A DNA stretch of 64,000 bases from a virus (taxonomy: Duplodnaviria > Caudoviricetes). A program made the position numbers and the translations under genes. Under the pieces are notes generated by a model that searched no databases, was not told the DNA's origin, and saw only the letters and a program-made list of their open reading frames with translations. Each line of letters starts with the position of its first letter. The stretch's first letter is position 1. Location: positions 143,862 to 207,861 of IMG/VR virus record IMGVR_UViG_3300031555_003522. One strand, given 5' to 3'. Shown piece after piece: positions 20,022 to 57,293 of this stretch.

Positions 20022-20724
20022 TTAGAACTGAATCATATTTGTAGAATTATTATTAGAGCCACCTCTAAATATTCCGATAGATTCTATCGGGAAACCCTTC
20101 AGATTGTTATTAATGATTTCATCATAATTAACAAATGGAAGTATCCAAGCAGGAACTGGTTCATTTAGAGGAATAGCTATAGCATCTATTCCAGTAGCAT
20201 ACTCTTTCTGCTTCATAAGCTCCACAGCCTTTTCATATACATAAGGATGAGACTCTCTAATTCTATCAATATTCTTAGGGGTTATATTAACTTTAGCAAC
20301 ATCGATAGAATTCCGAATACTCATATCCAATGCTTCTGTCCCAGGCTCATGAAGAGCATTATAAGCTTGAGATGCTACTATACCTTGAATTCTCATGGGA
20401 TTTTCATATGCTGATAGAGATTTTACCTTAAGAGGCTTAAAGAATTTCTTCTCACCACTCTGAATAGATTGATATATTTTCTTTTCCTCTTTAGCCAAAT
20501 CTCTAAGAACAACAATAGGATCTATAGATTCCACATTCAATATATCTTCTGCAAGTATTCGCTTTAAGTCAGCCTGAATAGTTGGATTGACTGTAGACTT
20601 AACAAATACTTCCATGCCTTTTGCATCAATAGATTTTGCATCAGGAACCTGGTTTCCTTCCTGAAGCTCAACCTTATATGCATAGTGTTTCTTTGCATGA
20701 CTAGATAGAAGAACACGCTTGAAT
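20022..20724 (-). CDS. DNA polymerase exon 6 (KKHY motif, thumb)
   Basis: Reads FKRVLLSSHAKKHYAYKVELQEG..KGMEVF into ORF 20022..20615. Confidence 0.85.
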
Positions 20725-23700
20725 CGTTTATTACTTTATATCACTATAAAGACTAGACTATATCTTCATCTTAAATACTATTACCATATTTGAGATGCTC
20801 CCCATTTCGAACTCTATCAAGAGCCCTACTCTACTCGGTTATTCTCATAGATCTTTCTTCTATGATATCCTTTCGATAGTCGTTGAACCTTCCTCTATTG
20901 AGGCTTGGCTGCTGATTGTCTCAATGAGAGTTCCCAGCAATTAAAGGAGATTCTACATAATGTCACCACTATGCAGCCCTATTCTTAAGGAATTCGTTCT
21001 TCATTGTAATTAGGCATGCACGCTCATTATCAGAGTGAGCATTTGTGCAGTATCTATCCATAAAATCATTCAAAAGAATACCTACACAATATGCAAGAAT
21101 ATTTATAATGGAATATCTTAATCCATCCTGAGGTATAATTACCATTGGGTCAACTAATCTATCCATCTCAATCATATCATCATCAACAAAACTATATTCT
21201 GTAACCTTTCCAATTACAGGTTCTGTCTTTATTTCTCCATCATCGATAAACGTAGCAGCATCTACATTTTGTGTCTTAATCTTCATAGGAATCTCACAAC
21301 ACATTTGTCTTACATACTGATACCATCCATCAAATGATACAATTGCACTCGCTTTGTTCATATAGGATCGCAACTCCATACAGTTCTCTTATGAACTTCT
21401 ATATGTTTCCATATAGGCCAGACTATATCATCACCCTACTATGGGTGCCTCCCATTTCGATTTAAAAGGTCTTATTTGGACATCGCCTTACCCCATTATA
21501 AGCTTGGGCTCTACTCTACTAAGTTCATCTATAGATGCTTTTCGATAGTCGTTGAACGTTCCTCTGTGCGAGGATTCGCTGCTGATTGTCTTTTATAAAT
21601 TAATAAGAAGATTTTCCAGCAATTAGAGAGGTTATCGACGCATGTTTCCATGCAAAGGGACGTAAATATCTTCATCCGTGTCCTGAATAATACTGACAGA
21701 TCTGACTAGAGAATCCATCTTAGCCAATCTATCAATAATCTGCTTATTATAATATACATACTCATACAAGATATCTGTTAGAGCTTTAAGCGGCTCTATA
21801 ATATTCTCTGGAGGCTCATTAGGATCCATAAATGGAGCATCGAGACTCTGAAGTATGAATAGTATAGCTTGTGTGACAGGAGCGTTATCAATGAAATGAT
21901 ATAGATTATTCTTATAGAAGAGTCTATCGAGTTCATCTTGATTGAGCTTAGATAGAATTTCCCAAATTATATGCATTTCATCTTCACTAGGCACCCATCC
22001 ATATCCAGTACTAGAAAGTAACTGGAAGAAGGTTTCTTCAATAGAAGCATGAATAGTAATAATACCATTACTATTGAAATGATGCTCTTCTGTAAGCACC
22101 GTATGAATAAATTCAACGAGTTCATTCATGGAACTCATTGGTACATTATTATTTAAGAAAGATTCTAGGAATAGCGCGGCAGCACTATTGCAAGATCTAC
22201 CTTGAGTTGTAACACTGGAAGCAGTATAAAGATTATAGAAAATACAAGAATACTGCCCAGTAGCTCCATAAACAATATATTCAAGTGGTTCATTACTCCA
22301 CCCAGTTCTCTTATGAACTTCTTTAGCTTTCACCAAAGTTTAGACTATATCTTCATCCATAAAGGATGTCCAGTACAGGATCTCATGATTTGAGACCTCT
22401 TAGTCGTTGAACCTTCCTATTTCTAGGCTCGGCTGCTGATTGCCTATTGTACCATCCTTCTACTATTTCCATTTAGGCAAGAAGGCTTTAAGGTGTCCCA
22501 GCAATTCTCTGGATTTAATCGATACCATTACTGGTAAAGTGGACCTTAGTTAATCCATTCATCTGGAGCTTTAAAAATACCATCATTTTCATGATGGGTT
22601 AGACTATATCTTCATTCATTTAAGAATGGTCTCTGTTTCGAGCATTAAGCCCTACGTCTTTCGACTAGTCGTTGAACGTTCCTCTAAACAAGGCTTCGCT
22701 GCTGATTGTCCAATCTCTATATTTTCAAACATTCACGATTACTCTTTCAAGTTGCGTTGTAGTTATAGAGCTCTAAGGAGTTTCCAGCAATTAAGAGACT
22801 TTAACGACACCAATGGATTTAATTTAGCGTCGATCTTACGCAAGTACCTCATATCGCTATGAGGGCTAGACTATATCTTCATCTATATCTCTATTACCAA
22901 GATATAGATGCTCCCCATTTCGAGTTCACTAGAACTCTACTCTACTCGGTTATTCTCATAGATCTTTCTTCTATGATATCCTTTCGATAGTCGTTGAACC
23001 TTTATAAATCAGAATCAGTAATACAGAATTTCATATTAGTTTTTTCTTTCACAACTATGGCTACAATCTGATATTCATCTCTGTATACTATTTCAAGATT
23101 AGAACCATCAGACTCTAATCTTATCACATTGATGCTTTTATTCAATGCCGCTTTCTTTATTTCTCGAATAGCTTTATTGAATTTTCGATTACCTTTCTCT
23201 GTAAAGTAAGATATAGTACCATGAAGTATATCAAAAGGTCTTTCTAAATATCTATCAAAATACCATGATAATCTAAATGCTTCATCTTCATCGAAGATAT
23301 CATCGAGACCAACAAGAATTCCAGTATGTGGTCTACTACACCCAGATTCATATTCATATCTATAATACACATATCTCACTTCCTTTCTGATTTATACTTG
23401 GCTGCTGATTGTCTCAGTGAGAGTTCCCAGCAATTAAAGGAGATTCTACATAATGTCACCACTATGCAGCCCTAAAATTAAGGAGTAGCTGAAGTAGATT
23501 ATATTTCTCAAAATCTTCAGATCCTTTAGGATACTTGAACATTTCTTTCTTCATAGCTTTTCTATCATTTATAAAGCCATCGATCATTCCATACAGTGGA
23601 TTAGGAACAGTTCCGTGTCTCTTAAACAATACACCATAGGAAGTTATAATAGGTTCTTTATCCATGATATAGTTTGCCATATAACTCAAGGTAGAGTTGA

Positions 23701-23908
23701 TTTGTTTGTGGGTATAGTTATTATCCACCACCACAGGAGTATCTTTAAAATGTTGCGAAATAGACCAATCTATTGCAGCAGATAATTCTCCCTCAGATAG
23801 TAGCGGGAAGTTAAAGTGCAGCATATCCATACATATTCGCTTGTATTCTGCTAGTGCTTTTACATCCGGATATGTCGCATATACTGTTCTATTCGTTATA
23901 AAACCCAT
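20022..23908 (-). CDS. Family B DNA polymerase catalytic (motif B/C) subunit, spliced from 6 exons: 23908-23481, 22838-22826, 22559-22553, 22272-21674, 21349-20988, 20724-20022 (703 aa)
   Basis: Exon lengths 428+13+7+599+362+703=2112 nt in frame; reconstitutes QLLLKIDANGFYGATG (motif B), QDTDSAIV (motif C) and KNEFLFKR..KKHYA. Confidence 0.9.
20725..20987 (-). mobile_element. Group I intron pol-I5 (263 nt, no ORF)
   Basis: P AATTGCTGGGAA, Q AATCAGCAGC, R GTTCAACGACTA, S AAGATATAGTCT; P1 CCU/GGG with U.G; P10 GAAU/AUUC; ends in G. Confidence 0.9.
20988..21349 (-). CDS. DNA polymerase exon 5
   Basis: SAIVSFDGWY...ITMKNEF; part of ORF 20969..21379. Confidence 0.85.
21350..21673 (-). mobile_element. 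Group I intron pol-I4 (324 nt, no ORF), splits DTD|S
   Basis: P/Q/R/S elements present; P1 GGAU/GUCC; terminal G followed by AGT (Ser). Confidence 0.9.
21674..22272 (-). CDS. DNA polymerase exon 4 (YG of motif B to DTD of motif C)
   Basis: YGATGQYSCIFYN...SIIQDTD; part of ORF 21632..22336. Confidence 0.88.
22273..22552 (-). mobile_element. Group I intron pol-I3 (280 nt, no ORF)
   Basis: P AATTGCTGGGA, Q AATCAGCAGC, R GTTCAACGACTA, S AAGATATAGTCT; P1 UGGAU/GUCCA; ends ..ATATTG. Confidence 0.88.
22560..22825 (-). mobile_element. Group I intron pol-I2 (266 nt, no ORF)
   Basis: P/Q/R/S present; P1 GACGCU/GGUGUC; P10 AAUCCAUU/AAUGGAUU; ends ..CCAGATG. Confidence 0.88.
22839..23480 (-). mobile_element. 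Group I intron pol-I1 (642 nt) carrying an ORF in the P6 loop
   Basis: P/Q/R/S present; P1 CCU/GGG; P10 AUUUUA/UAAGAU; core nearly identical to pol-I5. Confidence 0.9.
23002..23379 (-). CDS. Intron-encoded protein of unknown function (no homing endonuclease motif recognised)
   Basis: 125 aa with AAAGGAAG RBS, enclosed by a 12-bp stem (23003-23014 / 23385-23396); no LAGLIDADG, GIY-YIG or HNH motif seen. Confidence 0.7.
   Translation of the reverse strand: MRYVYYRYEYESGCSRPHTGILVGLDDIFDEDEAFRLSWYFDRYLERPFDILHGTISYFTEKGNRKFNKAIREIKKAALNKSINVIRLESDGSNLEIVYRDEYQIVAIVVKEKTNMKFCITDSDL
23481..23908 (-). CDS. DNA polymerase exon 1
   Basis: ..NDRKAMKKEM..YNLLQLL, pre-motif-B helix; AGGAGAG RBS; AACT-N6-TA at 23936-23947. 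Confidence 0.88.
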
Positions 23909-54647: not shown

Positions 54648-57293
54648 TTAATTAGATTCTGGCATACAATATACACCAATTTTATTGATGTTGCTTATAG
54701 CTCCTTTAAGCATAGCGTCATATCCATCAGGACCATCAGGGTCTATTGTAATAATTACATTACAATTCTTACCACTGCTAGATAGCTTAATAGGATTAGA
54801 AGTTATCTGTAAGTGGTTGGAATTTGTATCCGCATTTTTATCTGCAGATATTCCACTTACATCATCAATCTTTATACCCAATTCATTTTCGGCTCTATCT
54901 ATCATTCTTATAGCAATAGCTTTATTTGTATGGGTATTTTTCGAATCACTTCTTTCAAAAGCTTTATCATCATCTACTACATCATCTATTTCGAAATCAT
55001 CTACAACAGGTTCAGTTGAAGTGAGCTTTCTAAGATTGATTTTGAATCTAGGAAGATTTTTCATATCGAATGTCTTAAAATCGACCTTAAAATATCCTCT
55101 AGTACCAACAAAAATTATATCTTTATCTCCCCATGCCTTCCTGAGAGCCTCAGGATTGGTACGTATAAGACGCAAGATAATTGAAATTGGATTTAGATTT
55201 TTCCTAAAGTCGTATAAGTCACTCATAGGCTGTGCGGGCCATACACCTGGATCTATAGGAATAAATATTGTCTGTTTCTTATAAGAAGCATTCAATTCTT
55301 TATTATTTATAAGACGATTAATGAATTCAAAATAGAAATTAACGGCCTTATCTAATTTGAACTGAATATTCTTGAGAAATAGTCCATGATAGTAAGAAAG
55401 ATCTACAAAAAGATTTAATCCCTTATACATCTCTATTCTCGGATACATTTTAGTGATTTCAGGATTAAGAACTTTCATACTCTCATAATACTTCATAACT
55501 TCTCTACTATTTTTAAGGCGTTCACTATACAGATATTTTCTAAGCTTATTAGAATACATACTTTCATCACCTTCTGTGAAGATAGCCATGTTTTCACTAA
55601 TAATCATATTATCTGTATTATATAGGCCACTTTCAAATCTACTATCTGGAGTAATATGAGAAGGAAGAATATTAGGAGCCGCCATATCTTTATTTAGATA
55701 TTTCACAAAAATCTTTCTTCCATATACATCCTTATTACCAGTATCTTCAAATCCGTTGTTTCTTGCCAAATACTGAGATGCTAAATTATCATCATGAGCA
55801 GTCCAATAATATGTATTAAATCCATGCTTTATGCCGAGATCGCATCCAAGCATTTCTTTAACCATAGAACTGGCTATACCCATATCTCTATAATCATTCG
55901 AAACTGCTAAAGTAATTTGAGCAATTCCTGGAGAAGACGGGAATCTATACACGTCTAAAAATCCTGCAGGATTCCCATCTACTTTATGGATAATTCTCTT
56001 AATTATAAAAGGAGAATTCTCATATTCATTTTTGAATGTAATTCTCTTTAACTCATCTTGAGTAAGAGAAGAACAAATCTTCTGTACATCATCAAAGTTT
56101 GAACATTCTGGATTATCTTCTATAGCAGATTCCTTTGTCACTTCAGATTTAGCGCAAGTGTATTTATAGATTTTAGATTTGGTATAATAACTTCTAAATC
56201 TATTAGATGCACTAACTCTAATATCTGTCATACCAAATTTCTTAATCTGTTTGATTATATTTTCAGCTAATTCTTTTTCCTCATCAGCATCGCAAGAATT
56301 AAACATTTTTATTGCTAATCTTACATGCTCTTCATCATGTATAGGATACTTCCTTTTATCTGGTATACCAAATTGAGAGGGGAGCAATCTCTGTCTTTCA
56401 GAGTAGCTTAGACCCTCTGAGAATATCTTACGAAAAGCCATAATATCATTACCAATAATAAATTTGGTAAATATTCTTATATCTGCAGTATTAATATATT
56501 TGGTTATACCACGATAGCCTTCAACCTCTGTCATTCTATTAATAACTTTTAGTATTTTCTTTTCATCGCCAAAATCTACTTGACCATTATTCTCCTTATC
56601 CCAATTGGATAATCCGGACACATTTGCTGCTATTGCGTAAACAATTTTAGCACTAAGATCTATATTATAAGATGCCATTATACAACTTGCAAGAGCAGAA
56701 GCAAGATACATATCATAAGGGCCATACATTAATCTCTCATCATATGCCATAGAACTTACCACGCAAATATGCGAATCTCTTACATAGTAATATAATTTAT
56801 CCTTATCAGACTTACCGTTATAACTCTCCCTAAGAGCTCTAATATTAGGATATACCTTAACATTAATTTCCTCTGGAATTTTCGAGAGTCCTAAAAGAGC
56901 TGCATAGTCTTTAACAAGATTGGAAGTATATATCTTTTTAAGATATCTCATATCCATCATAGATATTCCATCTTCAAATTTGATCTTAGTTTTTCCTCCG
57001 AATGCACTAATCATAGTTTCGGACAAAGTTTCTTCCTCAACAGGATCAAAATTAAGTACCTCTTCTGGTACATTTTCTATATATGCCGTTACATTCCTAT
57101 CGATATAGAAAGATCTATAGATCATTGGATTTATAAGATACGGAAGTCTCATAAGCTGACTACTAACCTCCATACTCGGGGTTAATAGAAGTATAGCAGA
57201 TCCCTTCTTTCTATCTTTCTCATTTATAGGAACATAGACCTTTTTATTGGCAGAATATAAAAATAGAGGTTTAAGTTCATCCATCATTCTCAT
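54648..57293 (-). CDS. Large late/virion protein with an internal GNAT acetyltransferase domain
   Basis: 881 aa; LAVSNDYRDMGIAS (acetyl-CoA motif A), NLASQYLARNNGF (motif B); FGIPDKRKYPIHDEEHV module; AACT-N6-TA upstream. Confidence 0.7.
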   Translation of the reverse strand: MRMMDELKPLFLYSANKKVYVPINEKDRKKGSAILLLTPSMEVSSQLMRLPYLINPMIYRSFYIDRNVTAYIENVPEEVLNFDPVEEETLSETMISAFGGKTKIKFEDGISMMDMRYLKKIYTSNLVKDYAALLGLSKIPEEINVKVYPNIRALRESYNGKSDKDKLYYYVRDSHICVVSSMAYDERLMYGPYDMYLASALASCIMASYNIDLSAKIVYAIAANVSGLSNWDKENNGQVDFGDEKKILKVINRMTEVEGYRGITKYINTADIRIFTKFIIGNDIMAFRKIFSEGLSYSERQRLLPSQFGIPDKRKYPIHDEEHVRLAIKMFNSCDADEEKELAENIIKQIKKFGMTDIRVSASNRFRSYYTKSKIYKYTCAKSEVTKESAIEDNPECSNFDDVQKICSSLTQDELKRITFKNEYENSPFIIKRIIHKVDGNPAGFLDVYRFPSSPGIAQITLAVSNDYRDMGIASSMVKEMLGCDLGIKHGFNTYYWTAHDDNLASQYLARNNGFEDTGNKDVYGRKIFVKYLNKDMAAPNILPSHITPDSRFESGLYNTDNMIISENMAIFTEGDESMYSNKLRKYLYSERLKNSREVMKYYESMKVLNPEITKMYPRIEMYKGLNLFVDLSYYHGLFLKNIQFKLDKAVNFYFEFINRLINNKELNASYKKQTIFIPIDPGVWPAQPMSDLYDFRKNLNPISIILRLIRTNPEALRKAWGDKDIIFVGTRGYFKVDFKTFDMKNLPRFKINLRKLTSTEPVVDDFEIDDVVDDDKAFERSDSKNTHTNKAIAIRMIDRAENELGIKIDDVSGISADKNADTNSNHLQITSNPIKLSSSGKNCNVIITIDPDGPDGYDAMLKGAISNINKIGVYCMPESN

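Follow-up and report, generated by a model that had tools for sequence, protein, structure and literature searches.

Three consecutive group I introns around predicted 13- and 7-nucleotide exons in an uncultured giant phage's gene for DNA polymerase

Five group I introns in one polymerase gene

The 64-kilobase (kb) stretch of DNA analysed here, hereafter the window, is the final part of the 207,861-base IMG/VR virus record IMGVR_UViG_3300031555_003522. On its minus strand, at 23908-20022, the window carries a divergent family-B DNA polymerase gene that is cut by five group I introns (I1 to I5), the first three of which are separated by predicted exons of 13 and 7 nucleotides (nt). The record belongs to an uncultured giant phage that is related to the Bacillus phages AR9/PBS1. 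Pieces of the polymerase gene match Pfam family PF20286 in profile searches, and full-length homologues match both PF00136 and PF20286. Among named relatives, the product is closest, at 24-32% identity, to the catalytic subunit of the polymerase in the giant phages AR9/PBS1 (Bacillus), S6/Machias-type (Staphylococcus) and phiR1-37 (Yersinia). Family-B membership is also evident from motif B (KIDANGFYG; pattern KxxxNSxYG) and motif C (DTDS), which lie in one frame after the exons are joined.

The ribozymes were identified with the Rfam group I model RF00028, which has a gathering score of 50 bits. The polymerase gene contains four full-length matches to this model and two halves of a fifth match that is split by an open reading frame (ORF), and the whole record contains at least 13 group I matches. 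Full-length matches were obtained for I2 (22835-22580, 94.3 bits), I3 (22562-22321, 75.7 bits), I4 (88.1 bits) and I5 (92.2 bits). The two halves of I1, separated by the ORF, score 36.6 and 22 bits and are each below the threshold.

The six exons listed in Table 1, joined in order, yield a coding sequence of 2112 nt, which corresponds to 703 codons and a stop. The joined protein aligns to two uninterrupted homologues of 703 amino acids (aa), P0180 and P0181, with 0 gap columns over its whole length and 91% identity, and it matches both exactly across the three motif-B junctions, YNLLQLLLKIDANGFYGATG. The intron-less gene of P0180 (L137:278-2389) is equal in length to the joined coding sequence, shares 84.6% nucleotide identity with it and has no insertion or deletion at the five junctions. 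The same ungapped motif is found in more distant intron-less homologues, namely L011 (QLLDKIDANGFYG), L004 (QLLEKLNANATYG) and AR9 g152 (KLLANSFYG). L011 and the window do not differ in motif B. At the nucleotide level, exons 1, 2 and 3 end in U at 23481, 22826 and 22553, with a U.G pair within the P1 helix in all three cases, and I1, I2 and I3 end in the omega-G at 22839, 22560 and 22273, as they do in relatives. The junctions are fixed to a single nucleotide because U precedes the 5' site and G ends the intron, so that sliding a junction breaks one of these rules. A first-pass annotation of this DNA had proposed the same junctions, which are borne out by the ungapped alignment to P0180/P0181 and the collinearity with L137. 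Direct reading of the letters also returned its two exon sequences, UAAGAUCGACGCU at 22838-22826 and AAUGGAU at 22559-22553, and its arithmetic that skipping of 7, 13 or 20 nt would shift the reading frame holds.

Other splice sites were considered and rejected. Placing the 3' sites at the Rfam model ends (22847, 22580, 22321, 21399 and 20734) produces in-frame stops, frameshifts or insertions. The further sites tested (3' sites at 22847, 22841, 22580, 22563 and 22321; a 5' site after 23487) likewise give stops, frameshifts or insertions and deletions relative to the homologues. An I2 3' site at 22563, which adds AUG, stays in frame but disrupts both the P10 register and the motif-B spacing K+4=N. 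An I1 5' site after CAGCU (23487) would remove two leucines that all homologues have, and the corresponding pairing is missing in the relatives L014 and L016.

The 3' tails of all five introns extend beyond the Rfam model. In I1, I2 and I3, the model ends 8, 20 and 48 nt short of the respective 3' sites, and these introns carry additional hairpins at the 3' end. The I3 tail consists of a conserved hairpin and a second, covarying hairpin, and it always ends with G before (A/U)UUAUGG in the five genomes that carry it (the window, L010, L014, L134 and L136). L014 and L016 have I1 at the same site, with a 3' tail of the same type. Moreover, I3 and I4 have an identical 18-nt 3' element, AAGUUCAUAAGAGAACUG, which forms a small hairpin past the Rfam model end (22273-22320 and 21350-21398, respectively). 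I3 in L010, L014, L134 and L136, as well as an intron in L009, likewise ends with this element, which looks like a peripheral module common to several introns.

Table 1. Exons, introns and predicted guide segments of the polymerase gene in the window.
Feature	Position	Strand	Description
Exon 1	23481..23908	-	Ends ...CUACUCCU, phase 2; ORF and ungapped match to P0180/P0181 and L137
Intron 1 (I1, group I, 125-aa ORF)	22839..23480	-	Ends G at 22839; two partial RF00028 matches
Intron 1 guide	23470..23480	-	UAAUUUUA (distal P1 / P10), then GGG (P1 with exon CCU)
Exon 2, 13 nt, UAAGAUCGACGCU	22826..22838	-	Codons L-K-I-D-A with 2 nt of exon 1
Intron 2 (I2, group I, 266 nt, without ORF)	22560..22825	-	Ends G at 22560; RF00028
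Intron 2 guide	22805..22825	-	P10 strand AAAUCCAUU (22820-22812); P1 strand GGUGUCG (22811-22805)
Exon 3, 7 nt, AAUGGAU	22553..22559	-	Codons N-G and first base of F
Intron 3 (I3, group I, 280 nt, without ORF)	22273..22552	-	Ends G at 22273, 48 nt past Rfam model end
Intron 3 guide	22540..22552	-	UAACUAAG (loop / weak P10, 4 bp); GUCCA (P1 with UGGAU of exon 3)
Exon 4	21674..22272	-	Starts UUUAUGGAGCU = (F)YGA..., ends ...GACACGGAU = DTD
Intron 4 (I4, group I)	21350..21673	-	Splits DTD|S; RF00028; junction set by ungapped alignment
Exon 5	20988..21349	-	Ungapped match to P0180/P0181 and L137
Intron 5 (I5, group I)	20725..20987	-	RF00028; paralogue of intron 1
Exon 6, C-terminal part	20022..20724	-	PF20286 match

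Guide helices on the 13- and 7-nt exons

How could three consecutive ribozymes recognize their splice sites on exons of this size? Each ribozyme would find its sites with its own guide, which pairs as P1 with the last 3-7 bases of the preceding exon, ending in the U.G pair, and as P10 with the start of the following exon. The I2 P1 helix forms 7 base pairs (bp) between CGACGCU and GGUGUCG. All seven pairs are present in all 7 genomes that have an intron at this site, with compensatory changes; in L136, for example, GAUUCU pairs with GGAAUC. The first-pass annotation had assigned only the last 6 nt of exon 2 to this helix. The helix is real and covaries, but it has 7 bp rather than 6, given that the base taken as a spacer pairs with G in the window and forms a C-G pair in four and an A-U pair in three of the seven genomes. 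The related claim that exon 2 is tiled exactly therefore stands in part: two guide helices cover all 13 nt, with a split of 6 + 7 in which the spacer C belongs to I2 P1.

The I2 P10 helix is formed by AAUGGAUU and AAUCCAUU, with 8 Watson-Crick pairs directly abutting P1, or 9 when the first two exon-4 bases are included. The chance of 8 pairs in a fixed register is ~3e-5, and G at 22560 is the only one of the gene's 790 G residues that precedes more than 4 guide-matching bases in register. Across genomes, cognate guide-exon combinations give 8.4 of 9 pairs and non-cognate ones 6.9 of 9, and compensatory changes are seen from GGA/UCC to GGG/CCC and from AAU/AUU to AAC/GUU. The computed energy of the helix is -7.7 kcal/mol in the unspliced and -8.1 kcal/mol in the spliced state. 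The I3 P1 helix has 5 bp. In the window and L134, UGGAU pairs with GUCCA; L010 and L136 have UGGGU paired with GCCCA instead, and 4 of the 5 pairs are retained in L014 (GGGU with GCCC). As a local hairpin of 5-6 bp, I3 P1 has an energy of -4.9 kcal/mol.

I2 P10 and I3 P1 use the same bases of exon 3. At exon-3 position 6, A faces U in both the I2 and the I3 guides of the window and L134, and G faces C in both guides of L014 and L136. This three-way covariation is the best evidence from the sequence comparison that both helices matter where both introns exist. The mutual exclusion of I2 P10 and I3 P1 that the first-pass annotation had described is thus upheld, and by their shared bases the two helices are predicted not to coexist on one molecule. 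The guide footprints otherwise lie wholly within the short exons (micro-exons), save for 1-2 distal I2 P10 pairs. Each intron should therefore be able to splice whatever the state of its neighbours.

Intron lineages and occupancy of the motif-B sites

I1, I2 and I3 are pairwise 65-68% identical, and their cores have P4, P6 and P7 sequences in common. I1 and I5 share 89% identity outside the ORF. By sequence comparison, I1, I2 and I3 are members of different lineages. The short exons are flanked by complete ribozymes, as in the tandem-intron arrangement of the Twort orf142 type, and the codons encoded by their 13 + 7 nt are conserved among homologues that lack introns. The introns do not form a twintron: coding bases lie between the introns, and each intron is found alone at its own position in relatives.

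The introns differ in the genes that they carry. The I1 ORF in the window (23002-23379, minus strand) encodes a 125-aa protein of unknown family, and a homologue with 51% identity lies at L133:3096-3425 inside an intron of the I2 type. I1 of L014 contains a 114-aa ORF that is unrelated to that of the window and had no match in a Pfam search. I3 of L010 contains a 266-aa ORF for which a Pfam search gave no significant match, with a terminase-like match below the threshold. Cargo genes thus move from one intron backbone to another.

The informative relatives, drawn from the protein collection and its contigs, cover every level of occupancy at the three sites. L011, L137 and L004 have no intron there. 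I1 alone is present in L016, I2 alone in L012, L133 and L135, and I3 alone in L010, which shares 97% identity with the window in exon 4. I2 and I3 flank a 7-nt exon in L134 (AATGGAT) and L136 (AATGGGT). All three introns are present in the window and in L014, in which the exons are likewise 13 nt (AAAGATAGACGCT) and 7 nt (AATGGGT). The 7-nt exon thus recurs in three further genomes and the 13-nt exon in one. Homologues of I2 occupy the identical site in L012, L014, L133, L134, L135 and L136.

The intron-less L137 gene (690-740) differs from the window by synonymous changes exactly at the guide-recognition bases, with CUGUUA AAG AUC GAU GCC in place of CUCCUU AAG AUC GAC GCU. Its GAUGCC in place of GACGCU leaves no U at the would-be I2 5' site. 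These differences would fit a scenario in which exon flanks were co-converted along with the introns, or one in which the empty site is resistant.

For this clade, the protein collection contains 488 N-terminal fragments of the polymerase, along with many whose size corresponds to exon 4. From this abundance, we infer that most relatives are interrupted near motif B. Among the 120 fragments listed, the frame breaks after residue 4, 5, 6, 7, 8, 10, 11 or 13 of QLLLKIDANGFYG in 18, 3, 10, 9, 27, 38, 5 and 5 clusters, respectively. In the same 120 fragments, motif B holds at least 8 insertion sites in ~40 nt (the codons equivalent to window 23491-22262). An unusually dense intron hot spot thus lies in motif B of this polymerase family, and still shorter exons may arise from other site combinations, such as the sites following KID and KIDA.

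A megablast search of the region against phage records returned short intron-core matches only. Scans of the IMG/VR and JGI metagenome contigs with an I2-guide pattern found no relevant polymerase locus, and returned an unrelated intron (L017/L040) and chance matches. The contig concerned (L017:4413-5200, and L040) comes from a GC-richer, unrelated virus and is not a polymerase relative; it holds a gene with two group I introns ~250 nt apart that have a near-identical P5-P9 region.

We propose that three distinct mobile group I introns inserted independently at sites 13 and 7 nt apart, that the micro-exons are by-products of this multiple occupancy and that each intron can splice alone, and we assign this explanation a probability of about 0.78. 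The insertion sites would lie within the codons of motif B, K-I-D-A-N-G-F-Y-G, which would act as the hot spot. The micro-exons are read as by-products because all occupancy states occur, the introns belong to distinct lineages and L137 differs at the recognition bases. Splicing that includes both micro-exons would restore the 703-aa polymerase.

Several points weigh against this explanation. The I1 P1 helix is very short, consisting of exon CCU with GGG plus two intron pairs (CCUUA/UAGGG, -2.7 kcal/mol). The I1 P10 helix that had been claimed on exon 2 is present, but it is soft: UAAGAU pairs with AUUUUA through six A-U or G.U pairs, at -0.8 kcal/mol, with pairing kept at 5 of 6 positions in L014 and at fewer in L016. 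CAGCU (23487-23491) can pair with GGCUG (23467-23471) at -6.2 kcal/mol, which exceeds the canonical I1 P1, in the window genome only. This pairing could possibly create a cryptic 5' site 6 nt upstream, with the in-frame loss of two leucines. Furthermore, two ribozyme cores that dock on the abutting, spacer-less helices of the 13-nt exon may clash. Splicing, its efficiency and its order are inferred here from sequence. The protein collection contained no protein of at least 97% identity that spans the junctions, and hence yielded no spliced transcript of this phage. A long homologous protein was considered as the product of a spliced complementary DNA of this phage and set aside, since the best match is 91% identical and hence comes from a different genome.

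Splicing order, exon skipping and known tandem introns

Exon 3 is shorter than its two footprints, and therefore the second step of I2 and the first step of I3 should not take place simultaneously on one RNA. Under independent insertion, this conflict would be resolved kinetically, with the two steps separated in time. The likeliest route would be co-transcriptional splicing in the 5'-to-3' direction, although the reverse order would also be possible. The 5'-to-3' order is the least conflicted because I2 is complete ~280 nt before the I3 core is made and because I2 P10 (-7.7 kcal/mol) beats the I3 P1 hairpin (-4.9 kcal/mol). Were I3 to begin before I2 had finished, exon 3 might, after cleavage, be pulled out of the 5-bp I3 P1 by the stronger I2 guide, which would generate a dead-end fragment.

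An alternative explanation gives the exclusion of I2 P10 and I3 P1 a regulatory role: the exclusion would impose a fixed exit order on the introns, and the phage would use the delay to time or limit polymerase synthesis. The exclusivity is real, and covariation keeps both pairings where both introns occur. In three of the four genomes with I2 and I3, the I2 guide reaches 1-2 bp further into exon 4 than into the start of I3, which would fit removal of I3 first. However, L134 shows the opposite (8 bp spliced and 9 bp unspliced), and the extra exon-4 pairs are also present in genomes with I2 only and hence are probably inherited. The spliced/unspliced counts of 9/8, 9/7, 8/9 and 8/7 bp in the four genomes are mixed, and the length of I2 P10 was accordingly dropped as a read-out of splicing order. 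P10 generally assists the choice of the 3' site and is not required for it, which also counts against an imposed order. Close relatives cope with 0, 1, 2 or 3 introns, and the arrangement is therefore not a conserved regulatory feature. A comparable idea of a 'molecular on-switch' has been voiced for phage introns in a published discussion (PMC11878797), and a placozoan 1-nt exon showed both kinds of splicing intermediate (PMC5436844). We consider this explanation unlikely.

The same relatives bear on two claims of the first-pass annotation. An obligatory order finds no support, given the occurrence of each intron alone (I1 in L016; I2 in L012, L133 and L135; I3 in L010), with none dependent on a neighbour. 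The suggestion that splicing acts as a timer or brake on replication had been offered as an inference and finds no support here, and the range of 0-3 introns among relatives argues against conserved regulation. In a stricter form of the idea, the three-intron stack would be a kinetic gate in which the exon-3 overlap forces a fixed sequence, with I2 completed ahead of I3 or vice versa, and a mis-ordered start releases a dead-end 5' fragment. We regard such a gate as improbable; if it existed, it would set the speed and amount of DNA polymerase messenger RNA maturation.

A further possibility is that the micro-exons are frequently skipped, giving frameshifted, truncated polymerase fragments that are either waste or have a role of their own. 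Tandem group I introns are known to skip exons in Twort orf142 (23 nt) and Coxiella 23S ribosomal RNA (34 nt), as summarised in PMC10136302, and phage SIOphi provides an example in PMC11878797. The common P4, P6 and P7 sequences and the 65-68% overall identity of the three introns would favour skipping, as would exon-4 AUGGA, which can pair with the I2 guide at -5.1 kcal/mol. This AUGGA nevertheless sits 3 nt off register relative to the 3' splice site. The 5' exon ends pair with downstream P1 guides at 0.2 to -3.3 kcal/mol, compared with -4.7 to -8.5 kcal/mol for the cognate I2 and I3 P1 helices, and a chimeric P3 is less stable than a cognate one by 3-4 kcal/mol. In an engineered tandem system, differentiated splice-site elements suppressed skipping almost fully (PMC10136302). 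With three distinct guide sets, weak non-cognate duplexes and weaker chimeric P3 helices, the exon skipping raised in the first-pass annotation is not favoured; frequent skipping appears quite improbable, and skipping is not expected to dominate in the window. Finally, there is the view that the gene is decaying or the junctions are wrong, and that the micro-exons are an artefact of a forced frame. The offsets of 8, 20 and 48 nt between the Rfam model ends and the called 3' sites would speak for it, but it is highly improbable given that all six exons are open and together match a 703-aa homologue without gaps at 91% identity, that alternative sites give stops, frameshifts or insertions and deletions, and that five genomes conserve the 3' tails as structured intron RNA.

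The arrangement is an extreme form of a phenomenon already known. Among the closest parallels is orf142 of Staphylococcus phage Twort, in which three self-splicing group I (IA2-like) introns interrupt a phage gene and a short internal exon lies between two complete ribozymes (Landthaler and Shub 1999, as summarised in PMC10136302 and PMC11878797). The Twort exon between the second and third introns measures 23 nt and has room for separate P10 and P1 helices, whereas in the window the exons are 13 and 7 nt long and two guides share the shorter one. The second and third Twort introns are highly similar and skipping was observed; the guides and P3 of the window introns differ, as read from the sequence. 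In the Coxiella burnetii 23S ribosomal RNA gene, two unrelated group I introns also lie close together in an essential gene. This case differs in gene type, in its longer exon (34 nt) and in the observed skipping, again as summarised in PMC10136302.

Placozoan mitochondrial cox1 has a 1-nt micro-exon between two group IB introns, and RNA sequencing detected both intermediates (PMC5436844). As in the window, the exon is shorter than the flanking footprints and a second intron inserted beside the first. The presence of both intermediates suggests that shortness of an exon need not on its own impose an order. The two cases differ in that the placozoan exon is mitochondrial, 1 nt long and supported by RNA sequencing (PMC5436844), while the window offers a phage gene, exons of 7 and 13 nt, three introns and guide covariation. 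In Bastillevirinae, the DNA polymerase gene has up to three introns, phiNIT1 has a small exon in a reductase gene and SIOphi exhibits skipping (PMC11878797). The likeness lies in the concentration of group I introns in phage DNA polymerase genes, a small exon and heterogeneous splicing products. The Bastillevirinae belong to another phage group and have a polymerase of another family, and the text consulted states no size for the phiNIT1 exon and offers no analysis of overlapping guides (PMC11878797).

Engineered tandem Tetrahymena introns, with two ribozymes around one short exon, show what drives skipping or inclusion, although they are artificial, identical or engineered, and surround a 24-nt exon (PMC10136302). 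The authors attributed skipping to similar introns that form one large ribozyme or to similar splice-site elements (PMC10136302). Judged by these considerations, the guides of the window introns, which are already differentiated, should favour inclusion.

Our literature search found no phage exon as short as 13 or 7 nt. In the published natural cases with tested splicing that we found in bacteria and phages, the exons are longer, at 23 nt in Twort and 34 nt in Coxiella, and shorter ones occur in mitochondria. The window thus offers a natural case, recurring in several phages, in which three consecutive ribozymes have guide helices that tile or overlap on 13- and 7-nt exons. It provides a compact system of ~1.6 kb for testing how adjacent self-splicing introns avoid interference, and the variants with 0-3 introns serve as built-in controls. 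The arrangement also matters for annotation, in that gene callers and published annotations will miss the micro-exons and report the polymerase as several fragments.

The same phage has a second multi-intron gene outside the window, which is RNA-polymerase-like (phrog_25005; L009:1860-1900, equivalent to G000:C1 ~55359-55399). Two group I Rfam matches in this gene are 19 nt apart (55109-55371 and 55391-55619). The putative exon between the introns measures ~21 nt by eye (AAATATAGGTACGATGGAAAT), and the downstream P1 would consist of GGAAAU with GUUUCC.

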